Of a stretch of DNA of 64,000 nt, positions 10,938-51,217 are shown one piece after another. Under the pieces are notes generated by a model. The model did no database searches. It was not told the origin of the DNA and saw only the letters and a program-made list of their open reading frames with translations. Numbering within the stretch: the stretch's first letter is position 1; every line of letters starts with the position of its first letter. The stretch comes from a bacterium (GTDB lineage Bacteria; RBG-13-61-14; DATKZS01). A program made the translations under genes and the position numbers. The stretch is taken from assembly GCA_963674965.2 (NCBI GenBank), contig CAXXFL010000007.1:608001-672000 (forward strand). Reading direction: 5' to 3'.

Positions 10938-12038
10938 GTGCGCCCGGCAGGGCGCACCCACTTGAAGGTGAAAGTCCTTTGCAGGCCCGACAGGGGGAAC
11001 TGCTAACCGGACGGCAAGGGCGTCCGTCGCGAGGCGGAGTCTGAAGGGAGCCGAAGGCAAAACACTGGCCCGACGGACAGAAATCGCATACGAGGCGGGC
11101 ATGTCGGATGAGGAGGCAAATATCTCTAAAGTCCGATACCTGTACGGAAGGCATGCTCGTATAGCCCGCAAGGTAGGCGACAAGCGGGTGCTCAGGCTTA
11201 TCCGTCGTTATCTCCAGGCGGGGATGATGGACACCGGCCTCGTGCATCCGCGCACCGAGGGCACACCGCAGGGCGGCCCCCTGTCTCCGCTCCTTTCCAA
11301 CGTCCTTCTGGACGACCTGGACAAGGAGTTGGAGCGGCGCGGTCACCGCTTCTGCCGTTACGCGGACGACTGCAACATTTATATTCGGACCGAGCGCGGC
11401 GGCGAGCGTGTGACGTCCTCGATCACGGCCTTCCTCGGCAAGCGTCTCATACTGAAGGTCAACGCGGATAAAAGCGCGGTTGGCCGGCCTTGGAACCGCA
11501 AGTTCCTCGGCTACAGCTTGACGAGCGAGAAAGAGCCGCGCCTGAAAGTTGCGCCTGAATCGGTGGAGCGTTTCAGAGGCAAGCTCAAGGTCTTGTTCAG
11601 GCAAGGTCGCGGGCGCAACCTTGGCCGCTTCATTCAAGAGTATCTCGCCCCGGTTCTCCGCGGCTGGATCAATTATTACCGGTTGGCAAGAGTGAAAATC
11701 GTCTTCGATGAACTGGACCAGTGGATCAGACATCGCCTCAGATGCATCCTCTGGCGTCAGTGGAAGCGGAACTGCACCCGCGCTAAGAACCTGATGCAAC
11801 TTGGGTTAAGTGAGGAACGCGCTTGGCGCTCGGCCACCAACGGACGCGGTCCCTGGTGGAACTCCGGAGCGTCACACATGAACCAAGCCTTGCCCAAGAG
11901 GTACTTTGACTCGCTTGGTCTCGTGTCGTTGCTTGGTCAATTCAAGCGATTTTGATGTATCATATGAACCGCCGTATACGGAACCGTACGTACGGTGGCG
12001 TGAGAGGACGGGGGAGGCGACTCCCCCTCCTACTCGAT
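10938..12038 (+). mobile_element. Group IIC intron with a large internal deletion
   Basis: Starts GTGCG just after a terminator. Domain V (GAACCGCCGTATACGGAACCGTACGTACGGTGGCG) and domain VI ending ACTCGAT. Only 1101 nt long. Confidence 0.9.
11101..11955 (+). pseudogene. ltrA: N-terminally truncated group II intron reverse transcriptase/maturase
   Basis: [18 protein letters not shown] and maturase region (LRGWINYY) present. N-terminal RT blocks absent; no endonuclease domain. Confidence 0.85.
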
Positions 12039-30596: not shown

Positions 30597-32039
30597 TCAT
30601 TCAGGATTCACGCTCAAATCGGTTGGTTTAAACATCGGGTGGGCCTCGGTGTTGAAGACCACTTTGTCGAAGTCGAATTCCCCGGGGGGCGCGAAGAGGA
30701 GGTAGAAGTATTTCATGGTCTCGGCCAGGAAAAAACTCTCCATTTCGTCGAGTTGGTTTTTGGACCTTACGTCGGCCAGGGCCGCGTAGCCGGCTTCCGT
30801 CTTGCAGTGTCTTACGAGCCCGTTGAAGAACACCGAGCCCATGCGGCGGTACTCCTCGTCTCCGGTGTAGTGATAAAGGTAATAGGCCGACTCGATTATT
30901 TCCGGCCTGAGATGATAGGGTCCGTAAACCACCTTCATGCTTTTGTAGTTCATAATCTCGGGCTCGATCCCGTGGAGGACCCACATCCGGTAACAGGATT
31001 TTTCGAGGGCCGCGGCCCGGCCCAGGTCGCCGCCCAGGGCCAGAAGGCCGGGCAGGAAAGCCTCGAGGGCGCCGAAGGTGGTCAGGGTCCGCCGGCCCGA
31101 CTTCATGCCCCCTCGGCCGTACCAGAGCCCCTCCCCCGTCTCGTCGGCCAGGTGGGCGTTGACGCCGCCGATGCTCCGCTCCCACATGTCCATGAATTTA
31201 TCGTCCTCAAAGAGGATCGCGCTCTTGAGAAGGTATTCGTAATAGCTGTCGGTCCCGCCGCCGATCGAGGCGTCCCTCCCGATCCAGAGGCCGGTCTCGA
31301 CGTCGATCATCGATCCCACCAGCCCGATATCCGAGCTCCTCTTATATAGCTCGATCGCCGCCCGCTCGGCCTTCTCGTGGTAGATCGGATTTCCCGTCAG
31401 CCTGGACAGGGTACCGTATTCGAGAAGGTAGGTACCGATCTCCGCGGGGTTGCTGAAACGGCCCGAGGTCTTCCCCGTCTTGAGGTTGACGATCCGATAG
31501 GGCATGCCGGTGGGCGAGTCGAAGACCGGCAGCATACGGTCGGCCAAGTCCCGGGCCAGGGCCAGGAAGCGCTCGTCGCCGTCCATCTGATATGCCGAGA
31601 TCAGGCCGCCCAGGACCCTGATGGACACCTCGAAGTGCTGGACCTCCATGTCATGGTCAAAAGAGAGTGAGTCGAAAATCAGCGCCTTGGCCTCCGCCGC
31701 CTCCCGGTCAAGGCCCATGATGAGCATGGTGTCGTAAGCGTCCACCGGCGTCATCAGGAGAGGCGCCTTGTACCAGTCCCGATGGCCCCTGGAAAGCGGC
31801 CTAAGAGCGTCGTGGCCCCAGGCGTATCGCTTATAGCCGTTCCAGGCGTGGAGGAATTCCGCCCTGACCATCTCCTTGGTAACGGGGGTCTCATCGATGA
31901 ACAAGGCGGCTTCCGTGGAAGTATTATTTATTGACAGCAGGGAACAACCCGCGGCGAGTATTCCGGCCGCCAGCATGGCGGCCATTGCCGGTCCGACCGC
32001 GGCCGTCAATAATTCCAATGGACTGATTTTCCTTTTCAC
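30597..32039 (-). CDS. GH47 class I alpha-1,2-mannosidase, probable lipoprotein
   Basis: HAWNGYKRYAWGHD, FEVSIRVLGGL, DSYYEYLLK, LRPEIIES, ESFFLAET, FNTEAHP; LAAGC lipobox; GTG start after GGAGG. Confidence 0.92.
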   Translation of the reverse strand: MKRKISPLELLTAAVGPAMAAMLAAGILAAGCSLLSINNTSTEAALFIDETPVTKEMVRAEFLHAWNGYKRYAWGHDALRPLSRGHRDWYKAPLLMTPVDAYDTMLIMGLDREAAEAKALIFDSLSFDHDMEVQHFEVSIRVLGGLISAYQMDGDERFLALARDLADRMLPVFDSPTGMPYRIVNLKTGKTSGRFSNPAEIGTYLLEYGTLSRLTGNPIYHEKAERAAIELYKRSSDIGLVGSMIDVETGLWIGRDASIGGGTDSYYEYLLKSAILFEDDKFMDMWERSIGGVNAHLADETGEGLWYGRGGMKSGRRTLTTFGALEAFLPGLLALGGDLGRAAALEKSCYRMWVLHGIEPEIMNYKSMKVVYGPYHLRPEIIESAYYLYHYTGDEEYRRMGSVFFNGLVRHCKTEAGYAALADVRSKNQLDEMESFFLAETMKYFYLLFAPPGEFDFDKVVFNTEAHPMFKPTDLSVNPE

Positions 32040-32480
32040 TTTGATTTTTCCTCCATTCCTTCCCGCCGGCGTCATGCGCGCTCGTCCTTTTGACAAGCCC
32101 TTGTGATTCGCTTAATCACCCCGCGTGAAAGCCAAAATCGATCGCGAAAAACAGGGCCATGCCTATGGCGCAATGGTTTCTTTCATGCTATCTTCCCAAA
32201 CAATATATGACAAGCGCCCGGGCCGCGTGGAATTTTTAGGTTTTATAACAATCATCTCCGCCGGGACCGAGGGCAAAGATCAAATGTAAATTATTAATTG
32301 CTTCGGACGGCGGCGCGGGAGAGGGGCCGTTGCCTGAGGGTTGGCTTGGCGGCGCCATGGCCGATCCCTTGTCGTTTTCCGAAAAATTGGATCACCAGTC
32401 ATTCTTTTGCATCAAAGAGGCTCTGGCATTTTCCGGCGGCCGTTCTTGCCGGCCGAGACGTGACTTAGCGAGGAGCGATC

Positions 32481-35400
32481 ATGAAGACTGAAGAACTCAA
32501 GGCTGGCGTTATAATAATCTGCCTTTCGATCCTGGCCATGGGCGCTATATTCCTTCCCGGCTCTCAGCCGGGGGAAGGCCGTACCCTTGAAGACCCGGCC
32601 AATTGCGGCTGCCACCGCGGATACGACGCCGCGGTCGAGCCCATGTACAACTGGCGGGGCTCGATGATGTCCATGTCCGCTCGCGACCCGATTTTCTTCG
32701 CCGCCCTGGACCTGGCCAACCACGACCTGGCCGACGCCGGGACCTTTTGCCTGCGCTGCCATTCCCCCTCGGCCCACCAGGCGGGCAGGACCACGCCTCC
32801 CGACGGCTCGGCCCTCACGGGCATCGACGTGGAGGGAGTCTCCTGCGACGTCTGCCACGCGCTGGTGGACCCGCTCAGCGCGGAGGGCCAGGCCCTGGCC
32901 GATCCCGACGTGACCTCCTACGGCAACGCCATGTGGGTCCTGACGGAGGGGCAGGAAAAACGCGGCCCTTACGACGACGCCGAGGCCAGGCACGTGTGGC
33001 AATACCATGATTTCCAAAGGTCATCCGAGGTCTGCGCCTCCTGCCACGACGTCAGCAATCCCCTTTTATGCGACGCCGGCGACCCCTACAACGTACAGAA
33101 ATGCTTCACCGAGCAGCGCACCTACAGCGAATGGAAAAACAGTTCCTTCTCGTCCATGGGCGAAGCGGGAAACTGCCAGTCGTGCCACATGCCGCACGTG
33201 GCCGACGGCAAGGCCTGCAAGCAGGGATCCATCCGGACTTTCCTGCCGGTCCACCATCAAAACGGCGGCAACTCCTGGGTACCCGACGCCATCGCCTTGT
33301 TGTTCGCGGGCGACAACTCGATCGACTTCGACGCCCTGGCCGACGGTAAAGACCGCGCCATCGCCCTGGTCCAGGACGCCTCGACCCTGGAGAGCTTCGA
33401 CAAGACCGACGGGGGACCGGGCCTCATCTCGGTCCGTATCACCAATTCGACCGGCCACAAGCTGCCCACCGGATACCCGGAGGGACGCCGCATGTGGATC
33501 AACGTTATCGGTTACGACGCGGCCGATCAGCCGGCCTTCGAGTCCGGCGCCTACAACCTGGCCACCGCCGATCTGACCCTCGACTCGCAGGCCAAGGTCT
33601 ACGAGGCCCACTTCGGGGTCGAGCAGGGAGACGGGTCCTGCCTGCCAACCTTCCGCCTGGTCCAGAACAACTGCCTGGAAAAGGACAACCGTATCCCCCC
33701 CCGCGGCTTTACCAACGCGGCCTTCGAGGCGGTGGGCGCGGGTCACGAGCATTACCATTACGAGGACGGCCAGTACTGGGACGACACTCCCTACGCCCTG
33801 CCCCCCGGCGTGGTCCGGGTGGACGTGAACCTTTACTACCAGACGACCACCAGGGAGTATATCGAGTTCCTGGCCGCGGCCGACGGATCGAGCGTTCGCG
33901 GCGCCGAGCTTTTAAGCGCCTTCAACTCGACGAATAAGGCCGCTCCCGTTCTCATGGAAAGCGCGTCCCTCGTCATTGACTCGGACCTGGACGGCATGGG
34001 CAACGCCTGGGAGACGGCCAACGGCCTCGACCCCGGCGACTCGGCCGACGCCGTCCAAGACCTGGACGGCGACAGCCTTTCCAACCTCGAGGAATACCTT
34101 AACGGCACGGACCCGAACCTCGCCGATACCGACGGCGACAACCTGGACGACGGCCAGGAGGTAAACCACTACTTCACCGATCCCCTCAACCCGGACACGG
34201 ACGATGACGGCCTGACCGACGGCCTGGAGGGCAACACCCTCCTCACCAGCCCGCTCGAGTGGGACACGGACTCGGGCGGGGAAGGCGACGGCTCCGAGTA
34301 CAACATGGGCCGAAACCCCCTTGACCCGGACGACGACGCGGAGATAGCCGCCTACGACGCCATATGGACGGCGCCTCGCTGCGTCACGGGCAGGGGCATT
34401 TGCCTGGTCACGGAGGACTTAATCCTCGGCCGCGACACCATGGCCGGCGGACCCGAGCCCAACCAGCCCAATACCATCAGCCTCGATCCCTGTCCCGACG
34501 GGACCACGGGGGATTTCCATTCCGACGAGTCCATCGACCGGATGATCGTGACCGACCTGTCGGGCTCGACCTTTTTCGCGGGCGACACGGTCGAGGTGAC
34601 GGTCGCCCTCTGGTGCTGGACCGACGTGGGCTACGACCAGGTCAACGTTTACAACGGGGACTCGGCGAGCGGCTGGACATACCTTGGCGGCCAGGCCTGT
34701 CCCGGCATCGGGGCCCAGACCCTGTCCGTGGTCGGCCGCCTGGGAGACCACGTGGGGGACCAGTACATCCGGGCCGTCTTCTCCTACGAGTCTCCCCCCT
34801 CGGTATGCGACGCAGGGAGCTACTCCGACCACGACGACGTGGTCATAGCGGTCACGGGCCCCGCCTCCATCGACACGGACGGCGACGGGCTGAGCGATTA
34901 CGACGAATCCACCTATTACCTGACCGACCCGGAGGACCCCGACACGGACGGCGACGGGGCGATCGACTCGGCCGAGATTCTGGAGGGAACGGACCCGCTG
35001 TCCCCCACTGACTTCCTGGCCTTTGTTCCCAGGCTGCTCAATTACCAGGCCCGCCTAAACGAAGCGGACGGCTCTCCGGTGAATGGAGCGCTGAGCATGG
35101 TCTTCTCGATTCACGAGAGCGCCGGCGGCTCGACGGTCCTCTGGCAGGAGGGCTCGACCGTGGACGTGGCCGACGGTATTTTCAGCGTCATGCTGGGAGG
35201 ACAAAGCGCCCTTCCCTCCGATCTTTTCAACGGTGACGACGCCTGGCTGGAGATCGAGGTGGAAGGCGAGGATATGGTCCCCCGCAAACGAGCGGCCGCC
35301 GAGGGATTCTCGCATAACGCCCTGCGCCTCGGCGGGCAAAGGATCGAGTCCGGTACAAAAACCGTAAGCGCGGCGAACCAGTCTAACCTGACCGTCAACG

Positions 35401-35597
35401 TGGTCTTCTCGCGCCTGTTTAACGGGGCCCCGCGGGTGGCCGTCGGTCCCTCCAGCCTGGCCGCCGGAGGCGAGACCTTCGTCATCGGCGGGATTTATAA
35501 CCTCACCTCCGTGGGCTTCACCGCGCGCCTGGAAACCAAAAGCGGGGCGCCCGCGACGGGAGAGATATCATTTAGCTGGATCGCCATGGGAGAATAA
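32481..35597 (+). CDS. Secreted multiheme cytochrome c with Ca-binding repeats and fibre/lectin-like C-terminus
   Basis: CLRCH, CDVCH, CASCH, CQSCH plus atypical CGCH; GHKLPTG; many DxDxDG repeats; LLNYQARL module; terminal FSWIAMG. Confidence 0.8.
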   Translation: MKTEELKAGVIIICLSILAMGAIFLPGSQPGEGRTLEDPANCGCHRGYDAAVEPMYNWRGSMMSMSARDPIFFAALDLANHDLADAGTFCLRCHSPSAHQAGRTTPPDGSALTGIDVEGVSCDVCHALVDPLSAEGQALADPDVTSYGNAMWVLTEGQEKRGPYDDAEARHVWQYHDFQRSSEVCASCHDVSNPLLCDAGDPYNVQKCFTEQRTYSEWKNSSFSSMGEAGNCQSCHMPHVADGKACKQGSIRTFLPVHHQNGGNSWVPDAIALLFAGDNSIDFDALADGKDRAIALVQDASTLESFDKTDGGPGLISVRITNSTGHKLPTGYPEGRRMWINVIGYDAADQPAFESGAYNLATADLTLDSQAKVYEAHFGVEQGDGSCLPTFRLVQNNCLEKDNRIPPRGFTNAAFEAVGAGHEHYHYEDGQYWDDTPYALPPGVVRVDVNLYYQTTTREYIEFLAAADGSSVRGAELLSAFNSTNKAAPVLMESASLVIDSDLDGMGNAWETANGLDPGDSADAVQDLDGDSLSNLEEYLNGTDPNLADTDGDNLDDGQEVNHYFTDPLNPDTDDDGLTDGLEGNTLLTSPLEWDTDSGGEGDGSEYNMGRNPLDPDDDAEIAAYDAIWTAPRCVTGRGICLVTEDLILGRDTMAGGPEPNQPNTISLDPCPDGTTGDFHSDESIDRMIVTDLSGSTFFAGDTVEVTVALWCWTDVGYDQVNVYNGDSASGWTYLGGQACPGIGAQTLSVVGRLGDHVGDQYIRAVFSYESPPSVCDAGSYSDHDDVVIAVTGPASIDTDGDGLSDYDESTYYLTDPEDPDTDGDGAIDSAEILEGTDPLSPTDFLAFVPRLLNYQARLNEADGSPVNGALSMVFSIHESAGGSTVLWQEGSTVDVADGIFSVMLGGQSALPSDLFNGDDAWLEIEVEGEDMVPRKRAAAEGFSHNALRLGGQRIESGTKTVSAANQSNLTVNVVFSRLFNGAPRVAVGPSSLAAGGETFVIGGIYNLTSVGFTARLETKSGAPATGEISFSWIAMGE

Positions 35598-35762: not shown

Positions 35763-36737
35763 TCACGCCTCTTTAACCTCCTCCTCGCCCGGCGCCATCT
35801 TCTCTTTCAGCGCGATGACTTTCTCGATGCCCGCCGCGTCGATAATGAGGTTATCCACCACGTCCTCGCTGACGTACTCGGTATTTGCGGCGCCCTCGGT
35901 CTGGCCGCTCGCCTGGTCTCGTTTATCGGGGCCGTCTTTGACCAGTTTCACCTTCAGGTATCCGATCTGGAGACATTTCTTGCACCGGTGAAGCTGGACC
36001 TCCGAGCGCTCTTTCTCCCCGGGAGCGCCAAGTCCCTCCAGGACGTCGTAGTTGCCCGACTCGAGCTCGTAGCGGAACTGGCTTTTGTCCTGGACCGGAC
36101 CCAGCTTAAGAGGCGAGTCGAAAACCGACTCGGCCCATTCCCCGCAATGCTCGCAAAAGGGAGTATACCTGGCCGAGCCGTCGGCGATGGTCACGGACAG
36201 TAGAAGTATCAAAAGGGCCTCGAGAATCCAGGCGATATAAAGCCAAAGGCCCGATGGGGTCCAGCCGAATATTTGCCATGCTCCCGCGTTTCCTATTGAA
36301 ACAATATTTTTGCCAAGCTCAAGAGGGTTGAATATCCAAACGTTCAGCGGCTCTTCCGCGCCGGCGTAAAAGAAATGGACCCACGCCACCCACTGGACAT
36401 AGACTCCCAAGACGCCCGTAATCAAACCGAAAAATGAAGCCAACATGGGCGAGCGGACCTTGCCGGCGGTCACGCCGAAGCTGACGCCGAGTCCAAGTAT
36501 GAATCCGAAAATGAAGCTGATTATAAAGGTAAACGCCTCAAAGGGATTGATATAGGAACCCCATCCATAAGCCGCGCCGCCCAGGAACGCGGCCATGCTT
36601 CCGAATAAAGGCATATAGATCAGGCCAAGGGGCGATATTTTGCCCGAGGGCGTATAATATTTTGAGGGAAGATAGTCGTACTCGGGCACGGCGTAGGTTT
36701 CGGGGTTATAGTGTTTATAATCCTTCACTGGGGCCAT
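35763..36737 (-). CDS. Hypothetical membrane protein with C-terminal CxxC pairs
   Basis: About four TM helices; CEHC and CKKC. Confidence 0.75.
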   Translation of the reverse strand: MAPVKDYKHYNPETYAVPEYDYLPSKYYTPSGKISPLGLIYMPLFGSMAAFLGGAAYGWGSYINPFEAFTFIISFIFGFILGLGVSFGVTAGKVRSPMLASFFGLITGVLGVYVQWVAWVHFFYAGAEEPLNVWIFNPLELGKNIVSIGNAGAWQIFGWTPSGLWLYIAWILEALLILLLSVTIADGSARYTPFCEHCGEWAESVFDSPLKLGPVQDKSQFRYELESGNYDVLEGLGAPGEKERSEVQLHRCKKCLQIGYLKVKLVKDGPDKRDQASGQTEGAANTEYVSEDVVDNLIIDAAGIEKVIALKEKMAPGEEEVKEA

Positions 36738-36975
36738 CCTTCATTTCTCGAAATTGCAAAAAATGGTAATGCTTTGGAATAATTATAGCACGAACAAGCT
36801 TATAGCCAAGCTGTCAATTACGCTTCCACCCCGGCTAAAAGGCCGTTTCTTCAGTATAAATGCCTGATAATAAAAGATTAAAAAAAATTATTCCGCCGCG
36901 CCGCGATTGATAAAGAACTTTATAAAACGGGTTCATTTTTTGAATCCTTATTCTTCCGGCAAACATCTTAAACAT

Positions 36976-37050
36976 AGATTCCCAAAAACTTGCCAAACCT
37001 TTTCATCATTACCGAGTCCCGGAAGCAGCGCCGGGACTCGGTAATTTTTT
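36976..37050 (+). ncRNA. Candidate sRNA, unit 1 of a tandem array (5' end inferred)
   Basis: Weaker ECF-like promoter GAATCC-N18-TCTTA (36942-36970); seed CAAACCTTTTCATCATT at 36994-37010; perfect 15-bp hairpin plus T6. Confidence 0.55.
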
Positions 37051-37062
37051 GTATAAGGCGCG

Positions 37063-37089
37063 GAACTTTTCCGCCTCGGCGCGGTCTGA
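37063..37089 (+). promoter_or_regulatory. SigmaE/AlgU-type ECF promoter
   Basis: GAACTT-N16-TCTGA, matching the RpoE/AlgU consensus. Confidence 0.7.
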
Positions 37090-37094
37090 ATATT

Positions 37095-37169
37095 TGATCC
37101 CTCCAAAATGCCAACCCTTTCTTCTTGAAGCGTCTTCGGAAACGGAGGCGCTTCTCACTTTTTTTTTTT
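37095..37169 (+). ncRNA. Candidate sRNA, unit 2 (5' end inferred)
   Basis: CCCTCC plus variant seed CCAACCCTTTCTTCTT; 12-bp GAAA-loop hairpin with two G-U pairs; T11. Confidence 0.6.
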
Positions 37170-37181
37170 GCACTTTTTTGG

Positions 37182-37208
37182 GAACCTATTTTCACGGCGG
37201 GCGTCTTA
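37182..37208 (+). promoter_or_regulatory. ECF-type promoter
   Basis: GAACCT-N16-TCTTA, same spacing as unit 2. Confidence 0.6.
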
Positions 37209-37213
37209 CAATT

Positions 37214-37277
37214 AATAGCCAAATACAAACCTTTTCATCATTCTCCTAATCCCCGGTCGCCAAGCCGGGGATTTTTT
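37214..37277 (+). ncRNA. Candidate sRNA, unit 3 (5' end inferred)
   Basis: 17-nt seed identical to unit 1 (37226-37242), then CTCCT, 10-bp hairpin and T6. Confidence 0.6.
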
Positions 37278-37366
37278 ATGGCCCACCCGATCGTTACCTA
37301 CTCCTATAATATTTTTCTTGGCAAAAGGAACCAGTCCGCCTATAATCTGACCAAAGGGTAAAGGAG

Positions 37367-38605
37367 GTGGTCATGGCCGAGATAAATCTGACTAAATCTT
37401 ATGAGCTTTTCGAGCGGGCCCAGAGTATTTCTCCAGGTGGATACCAGGCTCCTCAAAACCCCTATTTTTATGGTTACGGCTCTTCTCCCGCTTTCCTGGC
37501 CAGGGGCAAAGGGTGCAGGGTCTGGGACGTTGACGGAAACGAATACATCGATTTCCTATGCGGCCTTGGAGCCATAGTGCTGGGCATGGGCAATCGGGTG
37601 GTGGACGAGGCCGCTCGCTCCCAGATGGAAAAAGGCGATTTAATGACCTTTCCCTCCTCCAAGTGGGTCGAACTGGCCCAGTACCTGGTGGACAGGATAC
37701 CGGGCATGGACTGGGCCATCTTCGCCAAGAACGGCTCGGACGCCACCACCTACATGACCCGCGTGGCCCGGGCCCACACGGGAAGGTCAGGCATAGCCAT
37801 GATAAGTCACGCCTATCACGGTTTCCATTACTGGTGCTCGGGCCCGGACCCGTCCATACCCCCCGAGTACCAGTCGGGCGTGTATTCCTTCCATTTCAAT
37901 CAGGCCCGAGAAATCGAGCGCCTGGTGGAAGAAAAAAAAGGAGAAATAGCCGCCGTGATACTGACCCCGGTGAGGCATGACGTGGCCAGCGCGCAGGTCC
38001 TTCCTACCCCCGAGTTCCTGGCCGCGGTGAGGAATATTTGCGACCGGGAGGGCATGCTCCTTCTCCTGGACGACGTGCGCTGCGGCTTCAGGTATCACGA
38101 GAACGGCTCGGCCGAGTATTTTGGCGTCGAGCCCGACATGATAGCCTTTGGCAAGGCCATGTCCAACGGTTACCCGATCTCGGCGGCCATGGGCAGGAGG
38201 AATCTTATGGAGGCGGCGCGAAAATTCATGTTCATTGGCACTCATTTTTACAGCGCCTCTCCCATGGCGGCGGCGCTGGCGTGCCTCGAGGAGATCAAAG
38301 CCTCGGGCGCGGTCGAGCATATGCTGAAAATGGGCGAGTTATTAAAGGAGGGCATTCTGGACGCGGCCGGGGAAAACGGCTTCAAGATCGATTACTCGGG
38401 CCATCCCACCATGCCCCTTATGATGTTCGAGGATGACCCGATATTCGAGAAGGCCAGACGCTTTAGCGCCCTGGCCCTGGAAAGAGGAGTGATCATCCAC
38501 CCCATCCACAACTGGTTCATCTGCGCGGCCCACGGTAAGGATGACGTTGAGCGGGCCGTCTCGGCCCTGGCCGATTGTTTCAGCGTGATGGCCGGCGAGG
38601 ACTGA
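37367..38605 (+). CDS. Class III aminotransferase (GSA-aminomutase-like)
   Basis: VWDVDGNEYID, DDVRCGFR, FGKAMSNGYP. Confidence 0.9.
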   Translation: MVMAEINLTKSYELFERAQSISPGGYQAPQNPYFYGYGSSPAFLARGKGCRVWDVDGNEYIDFLCGLGAIVLGMGNRVVDEAARSQMEKGDLMTFPSSKWVELAQYLVDRIPGMDWAIFAKNGSDATTYMTRVARAHTGRSGIAMISHAYHGFHYWCSGPDPSIPPEYQSGVYSFHFNQAREIERLVEEKKGEIAAVILTPVRHDVASAQVLPTPEFLAAVRNICDREGMLLLLDDVRCGFRYHENGSAEYFGVEPDMIAFGKAMSNGYPISAAMGRRNLMEAARKFMFIGTHFYSASPMAAALACLEEIKASGAVEHMLKMGELLKEGILDAAGENGFKIDYSGHPTMPLMMFEDDPIFEKARRFSALALERGVIIHPIHNWFICAAHGKDDVERAVSALADCFSVMAGED

Positions 38606-48218: not shown

Positions 48219-49193
48219 ATGAGAGACCTGAAAGACATGGGGAGCGGATGGATCGCCGCCGCGGGATGTATAATCGTCATCGCGGTCCTGGCGATTATTT
48301 ACGCCATTCAAGGCGGCCGCCGCGAAGCCATGCGACAAGAGTTCCTCGCCTCCCGCGAGACCCTCGATAAAAGCGCGGCCCAACTGTCCGAGACCGTCCA
48401 GTCATATAAAACCAGACTTTCCGATCTGGAAAATGAAAACAAGGCATTGAAAGAAGGAATTGAAAAGGAGAGAGAGAGGATAAATTATCTTAACAAAAAA
48501 GTCACAGAATTAATTCGCGAGGATAACCATTATAGTAAAAAGGGAACGGAAAGCCGCAAAGATATCATGATGTTGCAATCGCGCCTGGCTAATAAAAAAA
48601 ACAAGCGGGAGATAAGCCCACAGCTTAGCAAGTACTGGCCCGTTATAAAGAAGAAAGCCCCCGACTTCATCGATCATTATAAAAGTATTTATCCGGACTT
48701 CGGCCGGGACGCTTTCGTTTCCCGTGAGTATGAGCCTAGGTCGCATGTCGGGGCGAAAGAAAATGTGTATTATGGAGATATTGTTGGCGTTCTTATTGAT
48801 TGTACCGTTGAAAACCACGATTACCGCGTCTGTTCATCCGATGAAACAAAGTGCATATCGACCGGGGTATCCTCCCTCGACGCTGATTCAAAGGTATGTT
48901 TCGACGACAATTTTTGGGAGTTGAGCTTTACGATCGCTCCTTGCGGGGCCGCCTGCCGCTACACTCATTTGACATGGCTGGATGAAGACACTTTCATGTT
49001 CGTGAACCACTATCACTCGAGCGCGCGGACGGACCCGGACATAGCCGGCGACATGGTCGTTCCCATAATAAATATCTACCGAACTTTGCCCGAGTACAGT
49101 GTATCGAAAATTGGAGAGCACGTCGGCCCGCCCGTGGATTATGATAAATTTCATGACGTTGACTGGGCATTAATGCCAACGAAGGTCCCATAA
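48219..49193 (+). CDS. Membrane-anchored coiled-coil protein, paralog 1
   Basis: N-terminal TM, coiled coil, Cys-containing C-terminal domain with WLDEDTFMFV. Confidence 0.75.
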   Translation: MRDLKDMGSGWIAAAGCIIVIAVLAIIYAIQGGRREAMRQEFLASRETLDKSAAQLSETVQSYKTRLSDLENENKALKEGIEKERERINYLNKKVTELIREDNHYSKKGTESRKDIMMLQSRLANKKNKREISPQLSKYWPVIKKKAPDFIDHYKSIYPDFGRDAFVSREYEPRSHVGAKENVYYGDIVGVLIDCTVENHDYRVCSSDETKCISTGVSSLDADSKVCFDDNFWELSFTIAPCGAACRYTHLTWLDEDTFMFVNHYHSSARTDPDIAGDMVVPIINIYRTLPEYSVSKIGEHVGPPVDYDKFHDVDWALMPTKVP

Positions 49194-49206
49194 AAGAGGA
49201 GACAAG

Positions 49207-50196
49207 ATGAAAGGGTTAGGAGGCATTGGAAGCGGATGGATCGCCGCCGCGGGATGCATAATCGTCATCGCGGTCCTGGCGATAATTTACGCCATTCAAG
49301 GCGGCCGCCGCGAAGCCACGCGACAAGACCTCCTCGCCTCCCGCGAGACCCTCGAGAAAAGCGCGGCCCAACTGTCCGAATCCGTCCAATCATACAAAAC
49401 CAGACTCTCCGAAGTGGAAAATGAAAACAAGGAACTTAAAGACGATCTTAAGGAGGAGAAGGCGAGGATAAGTGATCTTGATAACAAACTTGAGAGCTTG
49501 AATAGAGAGGCCGACTACCATGGAAATATACTGAGGGAATGCCAAAGAAACCGAGTGCTTCTGCAGACGCGTCTGGCCACTCCTAAGAACAAGCGGGAAA
49601 TCAATCCGCAACTGAAAAAGTACTGGCCCATAATAGAGAAGAAAGCCCCCGGCTTTATCCAGCATTATCGAACCTTTTATCCCGACTTCGGCCTCGATTC
49701 CTTTATCTCCAGGGAGTTCGAGCCGAAGCTCGTGGGAGAAGGTAATGATCTGAGCTACGGCGAGCACATGGACGACATGGCCGACTATGTCGAAGGTTAC
49801 GATAATAGTTACAAGATTTACAACTACCGTGTCTGGTCTTCCGATAAAAAGAGGTACATCGCGACATGCATGGCTGATTGCGATGGTGATGAACAAGTGC
49901 GGCTACTGGACCTTGAAGCCAATTATCGCGCGACGATCGCCCCTTGCGGCTCCCCCTGCCGTTATACTAATCTGACCTGGCTGGATGAAGACACTTTCAT
50001 GTTCGTGAATCACTATCACTCCAACACTCGTACGGACCTGGACGTTACCGGCAACATGGTCGTTCCTCAAATTAATATCTACCGAACTTCGCCCGAGTAC
50101 ATTGTATCGCAAATTGGAGAGCACGTCGGCCCGCCCGTGGATTATGAGAGGTTTTACGGCGTTGAATGGGATTATAATTTGATGGTAAGCCCGTGA
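49207..50196 (+). CDS. Membrane-anchored coiled-coil protein, paralog 2
   Basis: Near-identical 5' and 3' DNA blocks to paralog 1. Confidence 0.78.
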   Translation: MKGLGGIGSGWIAAAGCIIVIAVLAIIYAIQGGRREATRQDLLASRETLEKSAAQLSESVQSYKTRLSEVENENKELKDDLKEEKARISDLDNKLESLNREADYHGNILRECQRNRVLLQTRLATPKNKREINPQLKKYWPIIEKKAPGFIQHYRTFYPDFGLDSFISREFEPKLVGEGNDLSYGEHMDDMADYVEGYDNSYKIYNYRVWSSDKKRYIATCMADCDGDEQVRLLDLEANYRATIAPCGSPCRYTNLTWLDEDTFMFVNHYHSNTRTDLDVTGNMVVPQINIYRTSPEYIVSQIGEHVGPPVDYERFYGVEWDYNLMVSP

Positions 50197-50236
50197 AGGC
50201 AAAAGAGGGAGGCGCCGAACGAGCGACGGAAGAAAC

Positions 50237-51217
50237 ATGAAAGGATTGAGCCGTAATATTGGGACCGGATGGACCGCCTTCGCGGGCTGTCTTGTCATCA
50301 TCGCGGGCATGTCGTTTTTCCACGCGATCAAGATCGACGGCTATATGGCCATGGAAAAGGACCTTCTCGCCTCTCGAACGGCCATGCAAAAAAACGCGCT
50401 GGAACTGTCCGAGTCCATCGGCTCTTACAAAGCCAAACTCTGCGCTCTGGAAAATGAAAACAATGAGCTTAAAGACTCGCTGGCCCGGGAGGAGGAAAAA
50501 GCGGATGAACTTCAAGATGAAGTAGATTCAAGGCAAAAATGGGCAGAGGAGAGTAAAAAAGATTGGCTGGAACGGCAAAAGCAGGTCGAGCGGCTTCAGG
50601 CGCGTTTGGCGACGCCAAAAAGCCGGCGGGAAATCAGCCCGCAACTTAAAAAGTTTTGGCCTATAATAGAGCAAAAAGCCCCCGACCTCATCGAAAATTA
50701 TAAACGTCATTTTTCGGACGTCGGACCGGACATGTTCGTCTCCAAGGAATACACGCCAAAGCTACTGGTCTGGAGCGACATGATATTCTACGATAAATCG
50801 GTCGATTACCGGGATTTTATATACCCTTACCGAGCGTACTCTCCCGATAAAAAGAAGGTGATTTCATCTTCATCCTGCCAGAAAATAGAAGATTGCGGCG
50901 TGGAAATGGAAGTACTGTTGCACGATCTTGAGTTCGATTGCTATAAAGCTCTTTCGGCGTGCTCGGCATGCAATTTCAAAGACCAGGCCTGGCTCGATGA
51001 AAATACTTTCATGTTCGTCACCAACATTTTAGTATATCATTATCTAACTGGTTCAGACAAGGATATGGTCAGGCCTTATATTTCCATTTATGTTTACAAA
51101 TCTTCTCCCCCCGCCGAGGCCCGTTTCGCCCTGATCGGAGAGCACTTCGGCCCGGTCGTGGAATATGAAGGGTTTATAAACACTGTTTGGGAATCTCGCT
51201 GGAGATATCACAAATGA
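50237..51217 (+). CDS. Membrane-anchored coiled-coil protein, paralog 3
   Basis: REISPQLKKFWP, WLDENTFMFV and IGEHFGP shared with paralogs 1 and 2. Confidence 0.78.
   Translation: MKGLSRNIGTGWTAFAGCLVIIAGMSFFHAIKIDGYMAMEKDLLASRTAMQKNALELSESIGSYKAKLCALENENNELKDSLAREEEKADELQDEVDSRQKWAEESKKDWLERQKQVERLQARLATPKSRREISPQLKKFWPIIEQKAPDLIENYKRHFSDVGPDMFVSKEYTPKLLVWSDMIFYDKSVDYRDFIYPYRAYSPDKKKVISSSSCQKIEDCGVEMEVLLHDLEFDCYKALSACSACNFKDQAWLDENTFMFVTNILVYHYLTGSDKDMVRPYISIYVYKSSPPAEARFALIGEHFGPVVEYEGFINTVWESRWRYHK

Follow-up and report, generated by a model that had tools for sequence, protein, structure and literature searches.

Layout of the array

The window, i.e. the whole 64-kb stretch of DNA that was analysed, contains three promoter–seed–terminator units at 36942-37277, all on the + strand. 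They lie in an intergenic region bounded by a divergent gene for a 324-aa membrane protein without a Pfam family (35763-36737, - strand) and a class-III aminotransferase gene (37373-38605, + strand), with a sigma70-type promoter at 37318-37346 (+ strand). Both flanks are outside the system described here, and the aminotransferase gene was not seen adjoining the homologous sRNAs of relatives. A previous inspection of the bare letters (the sequence-only reading) had described one architecture repeated three times at this place, and its promoter sites, seeds, hairpins, and T-tracts were all found again where it had put them. In each unit, a promoter-like site is followed by an unpaired stretch rich in pyrimidines and then by a GC-rich hairpin with a T-tract. 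In unit 1, a weak promoter-like site of the sigmaE type with a degenerate -35 box (GAATCCT-N16-ATCTTA, 36942-36970, +) precedes a predicted sRNA of ~75 nt (36976-37050, +), the 5' end of which was deduced from the -10 box; its seed is located at 36992-37011 (+), and its terminator consists of a hairpin (37008-37045, +) and T6. Unit 2 has the site GGAACTT-N15-GTCTGA (37062-37089, +) and is predicted to encode a diverged sibling (37095-37169, +) with the motif CCCTCC (37099-37104, +), a variant seed (37110-37127, +), and a hairpin (37127-37154, +) with T11. The site of unit 3 (GGAACCT-N15-GTCTTA, 37181-37208, +) is followed by a predicted sRNA of ~64 nt (37214-37277, +), in which the seed and an anti-Shine-Dalgarno (anti-SD) CTCCT occupy 37226-37247 (+), ahead of a hairpin (37248-37273, +) and a T-tract. 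CCCTCC and CTCCT were thus both located as claimed.

The 17-mer reported to be identical in units 1 and 3 was present at 36994-37010 and 37226-37242, and these are its only two occurrences in the 6.5-Mb genome, both strands searched. Folding z scores against shuffles were -5.9, -3.0, and -3.9 for units 1, 2, and 3, and the corresponding seed unpaired probabilities were 0.91, 0.99, and 0.99. Two DNA runs from a single sample, possibly the source of the stretch, contained it in one piece and with no differences.

An Rfam search had been proposed as a check. It gave 13 weak matches for the array at E up to 10, all far below gathering, and none at gathering score for 11 homologue loci. The sole Rfam match of the whole window was a piece of a group II intron outside the array (D1-D4-3 fragment, 98 bits, 11023-11192, +). 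Other genes of the window encode a fusion of a multihaem cytochrome c with TSP3-like repeats (32481-35597, +) and a GH47 mannosidase (30597-32096, -).

Homologous units in related genomes and metagenomes

The accessible part of one article names RBG-13-61-14 as a phylum (PMC13170169). When the whole intergenic region was compared by BLAST with 40 other genomes, no real homologue emerged, so that only motif searches reach the sRNA family. The sequence-only reading had made its case depend on conservation in relatives, and the architecture was indeed found in 10 of the 13 phylum genomes, with 15 copies in total: four in the genome of the window (G000), two each in G001 and G003, and one each in G002 and G004-G009. 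A tandem layout is frequent among these relatives. The hairpins are unrelated in sequence and not alignable, the seed is kept, and T-tracts are poor in several homologues. No sRNA was seen in G010 (87% complete), G011, and G012, where a profile built from the 15 copies gave nothing better than E 0.12. The same profile revealed no further full-length copy in the 13 genomes (150 candidates were scored per genome, and the training copies match by construction).

One of the copies in G000 is a fourth sibling outside the window (unit 4, C7:89272-89378, -) with a strong promoter, seed, and terminator. The same glycosyltransferase gene lies downstream of unit 4 and of the tandem pair of G001; unit 4 is therefore probably the ancestral locus, and the array in the window may be a derived, relocated expansion of it.

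Scanning 185,579 genomes for the combined pattern turned up 21 stretches; six of them have a hairpin immediately behind the seed and 15 do not. Matches outside the lineage, including those in Balneolaceae, were dropped as chance when they lacked this seed-adjacent hairpin. Metagenomes contributed 30 stretches, 12 of which passed the hairpin filter; after one had been dropped as coding, 11 loci remained, nine of them distinct. An independent triple array was seen on one metagenome contig (L245) and a double array on another (L242). Several seed-sharing copies are hence carried by G000 (four), G001 (two), G003 (two), L245 (three), and L242 (two). No orthologue of the unit 2 seed TTTCTTC with a terminator occurred among the 30 metagenome matches. 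As judged from these comparisons, conservation of the predicted sRNA family extends over one order within an uncultured phylum.

In family f3 and its kin, a second unit with a sigmaE-type promoter, seed, and terminator was observed 130-200 nt downstream of the family sRNA, itself downstream of a thioredoxin gene (L104, L105, L096, L220, L227, and L236). It carries an anti-SD run (GCTCGCCCCTCCTTTTT), and no Rfam match was obtained for it in L105 and L096.

Complementarity to start codons and co-variation with the main target

The seeds had been suggested to be directed against start codons, and real gene starts do match them. Unit 1 offers an 18-nt perfect complement from the first AUG of the gene at G000 C4:324750-330923 (-), referred to below as the main target, and a 17-nt perfect complement over the start of a lipoprotein gene at G000 C3:192929-194779 (-). 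These two are its best duplexes among 4733 called starts, and the 18-nt match, at a start codon, is its longest complement anywhere in the genome outside the array. When the single-stranded part of unit 1 was shuffled 35 times, the longest matches were 11-14 nt, and one of the 35 touched a start. Unit 4 pairs with the main target over 20 nt.

Homologues of the main target were sought by protein, independently of the seed, and their starts were then read. The longest perfect duplex within one genome was 20 nt in G000, 20 in G001, 22 in G002, 26 in G004, 20 in G005, 22 in G006, 12 in G007, 22 in G008, and 14 in G009. It thus reached 20-26 nt in seven of nine genomes and always lay over the AUG, beginning 1-5 nt before it; pairing was weaker in G007 (16 nt with G-U pairs) and G009. 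The own-genome duplexes summed to 178 as compared with a permutation mean of 109, a value reached by 2 of 362,880 assignments of the nine genomes; with one genome per genus, the sum was 130 against a mean of 85 and was reached by 1 of 5,040 assignments, own-genome pairing being the best, and since the genomes are kin and not independent, these figures overstate the case.

The main target starts with MKGFGR in family f3 and with MKRLG in genus g3. The correspondingly altered seeds were predicted from these starts and afterwards found in the genomes. The co-varying positions of seed and target include bases of the 5' UTR as well as codon changes, and constraint on the protein cannot explain matching changes in untranslated bases. 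Moreover, the best match of the sRNA profile after its training copies was the antisense of the main target's start in six of ten genomes (G000, G001, G002, G004, G005, and G008).

The choice of target was not equally independent in all genomes. The G005 target came from the seed search and was assigned to the protein family by its similarity to the proteins of G006 (E 2e-24) and G000 (E 3e-07). In G004 and G009, target paralogues were chosen after the seeds were known; the top protein match alone pairs over 6 nt. The sigma54 consensus is GG-N10-GC. A motif of this type is located upstream of 9/9 chosen main targets and 0/5 other paralogues, which backs the choice in G004 and G009 after the fact. 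G003 has two sRNAs, but no main target was found there by protein search. On the aligned sequences, the seed of the sRNA family has changed in step with the start of the main target across related genomes.

The possibility that a cis hairpin masks the target start was discarded: in most orthologues accessibility was within background, and no shared structure was seen. A paralogue of the main target in G000 (C1:208939-214590, +; L070) has an N-terminus 75% identical to it, is split into frames of 302 and 1563 aa, matches the seed over 13 nt, and has no sigma54 motif.

Nature of the target proteins

The main target is a secreted protein of 2057 aa with a signal peptide. It matched no Pfam family. 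Its structure model (pLDDT 69.8) gave middling Z scores of 6.6-8.4 in wide searches: an N-terminal dockerin-like helix pair resembled 4dh2_D (Z 6.7, rmsd 3.3, 65 aligned), and an Ig-like domain was closest to domains of invasin, intimin, and complement C5 (Z 8.3-8.4) and also similar to the S-layer protein SbsB (Z 8.1). Foldseek returned nothing at E<=0.001 for the N-terminus, and the Atlas placed the protein near dockerin and Big_2 clusters at 0.90. In G000 it contains acidic repeats, and a glycosyltransferase cluster follows its gene. These two features together suggest a glycosylated surface or S-layer-like protein. The dockerin-like module recurs in ~29 mostly very large proteins (1000-4900 aa) of G000, which suggests that such modules may form a cellulosome-like surface assembly code.

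The lipoprotein (616 aa) had no Pfam family and no Atlas match, and its fold model (pLDDT 37.7) was not used. In likeness of codon use to ribosomal genes it ranked 47/3673, with the main target at rank 739. Its orthologues keep ATG ATG AAA (A/G)GG TT in the four family genomes, of four, where the start is held, and pair over 13-17 nt with the sRNAs of their own genomes; the start sequence is not kept in G007 or G010. A stand-alone gene of the PqqD family (G000 C3:194917-195156, -; L017) lies directly upstream of the lipoprotein gene, PqqD-like sequence also precedes the orthologues in G001, G002, G003, and G007, and sigma54-type motifs occur ~410-430 nt upstream of the orthologues in G001 and G003.

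Division of labor among the siblings

The sequence-only reading had expected mRNAs of exported proteins in general to be silenced, with enrichment of signal-peptide genes among the targets. Gene starts and signal peptides were called by crude scripts. Unit 3 conformed to this expectation: of its predicted targets, nine in the top 10 and 31 in the top 50 carried signal peptides against a background of 22%, and six shuffles gave 2-15/50. No enrichment was found among the top 50 targets of unit 1 (8), unit 2 (8), and unit 4 (14), with ~11 expected. Accessible seeds complementary to start regions of envelope-protein mRNAs were seen in units 1, 3, and 4 and in the homologues, but not in unit 2; one main co-evolving target is central, and broad signal-peptide targeting is supported for unit 3 only. 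Genes starting with M(M)KR use AAA AGG in 35/112 cases, compared with 48/260 for KR pairs some codons downstream (Fisher p 0.01), a modest hint that AAA AGG at gene starts may act as a common address.

Both promoter and terminator of unit 2 are strong, but the seed has mismatches to the AUG. Its weak candidate target, a 329-aa protein starting with MKGLGG (49207-50196, +), ranked 3/4733, which may be no more than chance. With no supported target, unit 2 may have drifted to another target or may be decaying. The candidate gene is the middle one of three tandem paralogous genes of ~325 aa (48219-51217 of the window, +), the products of which have an N-terminal membrane anchor, a coiled coil, and no clear family.

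Promoter motif and candidate sigma factor

The E. coli RpoE/AlgU promoter consensus served as reference for the sigmaE-type motif. The strict pattern GGAAC[CT]T-N15/16-[GC]TCT[GTA]A had three matches genome-wide, two of them within the array. A looser pattern had 11 matches as compared with 10 for the reversed control, so that the motif alone is not over-represented genome-wide. The motif is present in 15/15 aligned sRNA copies, many of which were found via a pattern that demanded it; that of unit 1 is degenerate. When scored with a relatives-only matrix, the unit 3 site reached 18.3 bits (rank 3 genome-wide) and the unit 2 site 15.7 bits, and the unit 1 site was absent from the top 70 listed; it scored 13.0 bits in a matrix that itself includes unit 1. 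The three claimed promoters hence stand at their sites, the first being weak as originally described, without genome-wide enrichment of the motif as such.

An RpoE-type ECF sigma factor, for which the sequence-only reading had advised a search, is encoded at G000 C7:771679-772494. Its best PDB matches were sigma-H (6in7) and one unnamed sigma (E 2e-39), then sigmaE (2e-35); it keeps an FRGDS loop and a GTVKSRI motif, and a zf-HC2 anti-sigma gene follows. In G000, the relatives-only matrix ranked a SurA/PpiC gene first and unit 4 second, with a second PpiC gene within the top 11 sites; lower-ranked candidates were genes for a TPR protein, a PEGA protein, and an SLT/LysM protein and a SIMPL gene. 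Above 15.5 bits, 14 of 23 sites were intergenic versus 2-10 for six permuted matrices; total site counts were similar for the permuted matrices. These sites are suggestive of a predicted regulon of the RpoE-like sigma.

It is conceivable, if unlikely, that the RNAs are real antisense sRNAs for the main target driven by another ECF sigma factor or by a signal different from envelope stress, for example in a developmental switch-off of the sigma54-made surface protein. G000 has 13 matches to sigma70 region 2 and about eight ECF-sized sigma factors, ECF groups share GGAAC -35 boxes, and the predicted regulon is small and mixed. Against this, the motif keeps its position at the RpoE-like locus (at least 15 bits at 7/11 such loci) and does not reach that score at other ECF loci (0/11), an orthologue of the RpoE-like sigma is present in 10/10 sRNA-bearing genomes and, of the three genomes without sRNA, in G011 only, and the top regulon member is SurA-like. 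In favor of another signal, the part of the Fusobacterium study at hand reports that sigmaE/FoxI answers to oxygen, not polymyxin (PMC9546586). The distribution of the sigma gene and of its motif favors control by the RpoE-like factor.

The position of the sigmaE-type promoter at the sigma locus itself differed between lineages (loci L175-L185): it is upstream of the rpoE-like gene in Hfq-positive families (G005-G009) and between the sigma and anti-sigma genes in the Hfq-less family (G000, where it lies at C7:771553-771580 on the - strand, G001, G002, and G004; weak in G003). This shift is possibly a switch from positive to negative feedback.

Absence of Hfq and length of pairing

Hfq, another suggested check, turned out to be missing from the genome. 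It was found in 0/5 genomes of the own family (95-98% complete) and in 8/8 other phylum genomes; an LSM family search gave nothing over the cut-off. This appears to be a clean loss in one family, the other sRNAs of which would also be Hfq-independent. ProQ was not found in G000, nor did a Jag_N domain turn up; RNase III, RNase E/G, sigma54, and KH-domain proteins of the KhpA/B type are encoded. The genomes without Hfq have 4, 2, 1, 2, and 1 sRNA copies, and those with Hfq have one each. The idea that long pairing replaced Hfq found no support: duplexes measured 20, 20, 22, and 26 nt without Hfq versus 20, 22, 12, 22, and 14 nt with it. Duplex length being the same, long pairing predates the loss of Hfq.

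A variant of the sRNA reading, to which we assign a very small probability, holds that the RNAs mainly guide a nuclease, either RNase III acting on a 20-26-bp duplex or a guide-binding protein, instead of blocking the ribosome. Such lengths of perfect pairing far exceed the 6-12-nt seeds that the available text gives for Hfq-dependent sRNAs (PMC6694218), and RNase III is at hand; yet the site always covers the AUG, which would be needless for a pure cleavage guide, Argonaute/Piwi was found in 0/13 genomes, and the hairpins are unrelated, so that there is no conserved handle sequence.

Coding potential of the opposite strand

The sequence-only reading had itself named translated minus-strand micro-ORFs as an explanation of the 17-mer. 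On the minus strand, unit 3 does read MMKRFVFGY with a Shine-Dalgarno sequence (SD), and unit 1 reads MMKRFGKFLGIYV, as expected for MKRF... peptides of a type I toxin-antitoxin-like system or for relics of duplicated gene starts. This origin is highly improbable: such ORFs are not conserved among the homologues, where the antisense frames comprise 8-61 aa with no conservation past the seed, the minus strand lacks an SD in unit 1 and an ATG in unit 2, promoter and T-tract point to the opposite strand in all copies, and the seed follows the 5' UTR of a distant gene. Nor was any conserved small toxin ORF, as expected for type I toxin-antitoxin or cis-antisense pairs, seen opposite or adjacent to the array and its homologues. 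A chance meeting of unrelated terminators with AT-rich intergenic sequence is barely credible, since three elements recur with unchanged order and spacing in the 15 copies of 10 genomes and co-variation with the target is seen, even though loose promoter motifs are common and most combined-pattern matches outside the lineage are chance.

A proposed noncoding arm of the sigmaE response

From the observed architecture, conservation, AUG complementarity, co-variation, candidate sigma factor, and Hfq absence, we consider it quite likely that the units encode sibling trans-acting sRNAs that are driven by an RpoE-like sigma factor under envelope stress and cover the AUG of a surface-protein mRNA. 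This reading, predicted from sequence, passed every computational test that was run. Envelope stress would release the RpoE/AlgU-like sigma from its anti-sigma. As the motifs imply, this sigma would transcribe SurA/PpiC chaperone genes together with the units, each of these separately from a GGAACYT-N15/16-RTCTW promoter to a terminator of its own. The unstructured 5' part of each sRNA would pair over the AUG plus the initial 4-6 codons of the main-target mRNA, whose gene is itself apparently under a sigma54-type promoter. By analogy with established sRNA behavior, pairing would block 30S loading, and the untranslated mRNA would decay; with less surface protein, the load on export and folding would fall, making the RNAs a noncoding arm of the sigmaE response. 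An ancestral single RNA (unit 4) would have been duplicated in this genome and the copies would have diverged, with unit 1 also fitting the abundant-looking lipoprotein and unit 3 gaining the anti-SD and fitting many exported proteins that start with MKR. In its own family, sRNA action would have to do without Hfq or ProQ.

A bolder version, which we hold to be doubtful, sees a chaperone-free, guide-like family: 20-26 perfect pairs would be kept by compensatory evolution, tandem siblings arising after the loss of Hfq would silence exported proteins via an n-region address AUG AAA AGG UUU, and the sigmaE promoter would have shifted from a place ahead of the sigma gene to one ahead of the anti-sigma gene.

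Comparison with known systems

Going by the accessible text, MicL of E. coli is likewise sigmaE-driven and dedicated to one very abundant envelope mRNA (lpp), and it pairs near the beginning of the coding sequence, blocking translation (PMC4102768), as is predicted here. MicL differs in that it binds Hfq, originates within cutC, undergoes processing, and has its core at +16 to +28 (PMC4102768, same text), whereas the array consists of stand-alone, multi-copy genes without Hfq, with AUG pairing of 20-26 perfect bases and no sequence match to MicL. FoxI and FoxJ of Fusobacterium nucleatum, as far as their reports could be consulted, are sigmaE-dependent RNAs outside Proteobacteria in a host without Hfq and repress envelope proteins, with shared and distinct targets for the two RNAs; their seeds are C stretches that address FomA and autotransporter mRNAs, and these reports do not present them as tandem siblings (PMC9546586, PMC11005410). 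In contrast, the seed of the array matches AUG plus signal-peptide codons and co-varies with one target, and Hfq was lost in one family and kept in sister families.

MicA, RybB, VrrA, and MicV are repressive noncoding members of the sigmaE response with a 5' seed, an intrinsic terminator, and a length of ~70 nt, but the excerpted source describes short, Hfq-assisted seeds of 6-12 nt directed at many porin mRNAs (PMC6694218); the main targets here are no recognizable porins, being a dockerin/Ig-like secreted protein and a lipoprotein. The streptococcal csRNAs, in the portions of text available, form a set of siblings, partly arranged in tandem, whose anti-SD and anti-AUG stretches are unpaired, in hosts without Hfq, and were predicted from a regulator site plus terminator, as was the array. 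They differ in having two stem-loops and in being CiaR/sigma70-driven (PMC3091779, PMC4211561), and in the array anti-SD plus anti-AUG is confined to unit 3, the family seed extending into codons 2-6. By sequence, the array is homologous to none of MicL, FoxI/FoxJ, and the csRNAs, like which it is predicted to function. Within the listings and beginnings of abstracts covered, drawn mostly from openly accessible papers, no sRNA was reported in the phylum, nor was this sRNA family.

If correct, the model provides short, unstructured, chaperone-free repressors of <75 nt that would be useful as synthetic sRNA scaffolds, and the assignment of promoter, sigma, RNA, and target would have needed nothing but genomes. 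It is rare to see so plainly how a trans-encoded sRNA and its target compensate each other's changes base for base in nature. The occurrence of the same RNA family in five genomes with Hfq and five without would constitute a natural experiment on sRNA action without Hfq. The noncoding arm of sigmaE would also reach an uncultured phylum and a target of a new type, namely a dockerin/Ig-like surface protein whose gene is transcribed by sigma54.
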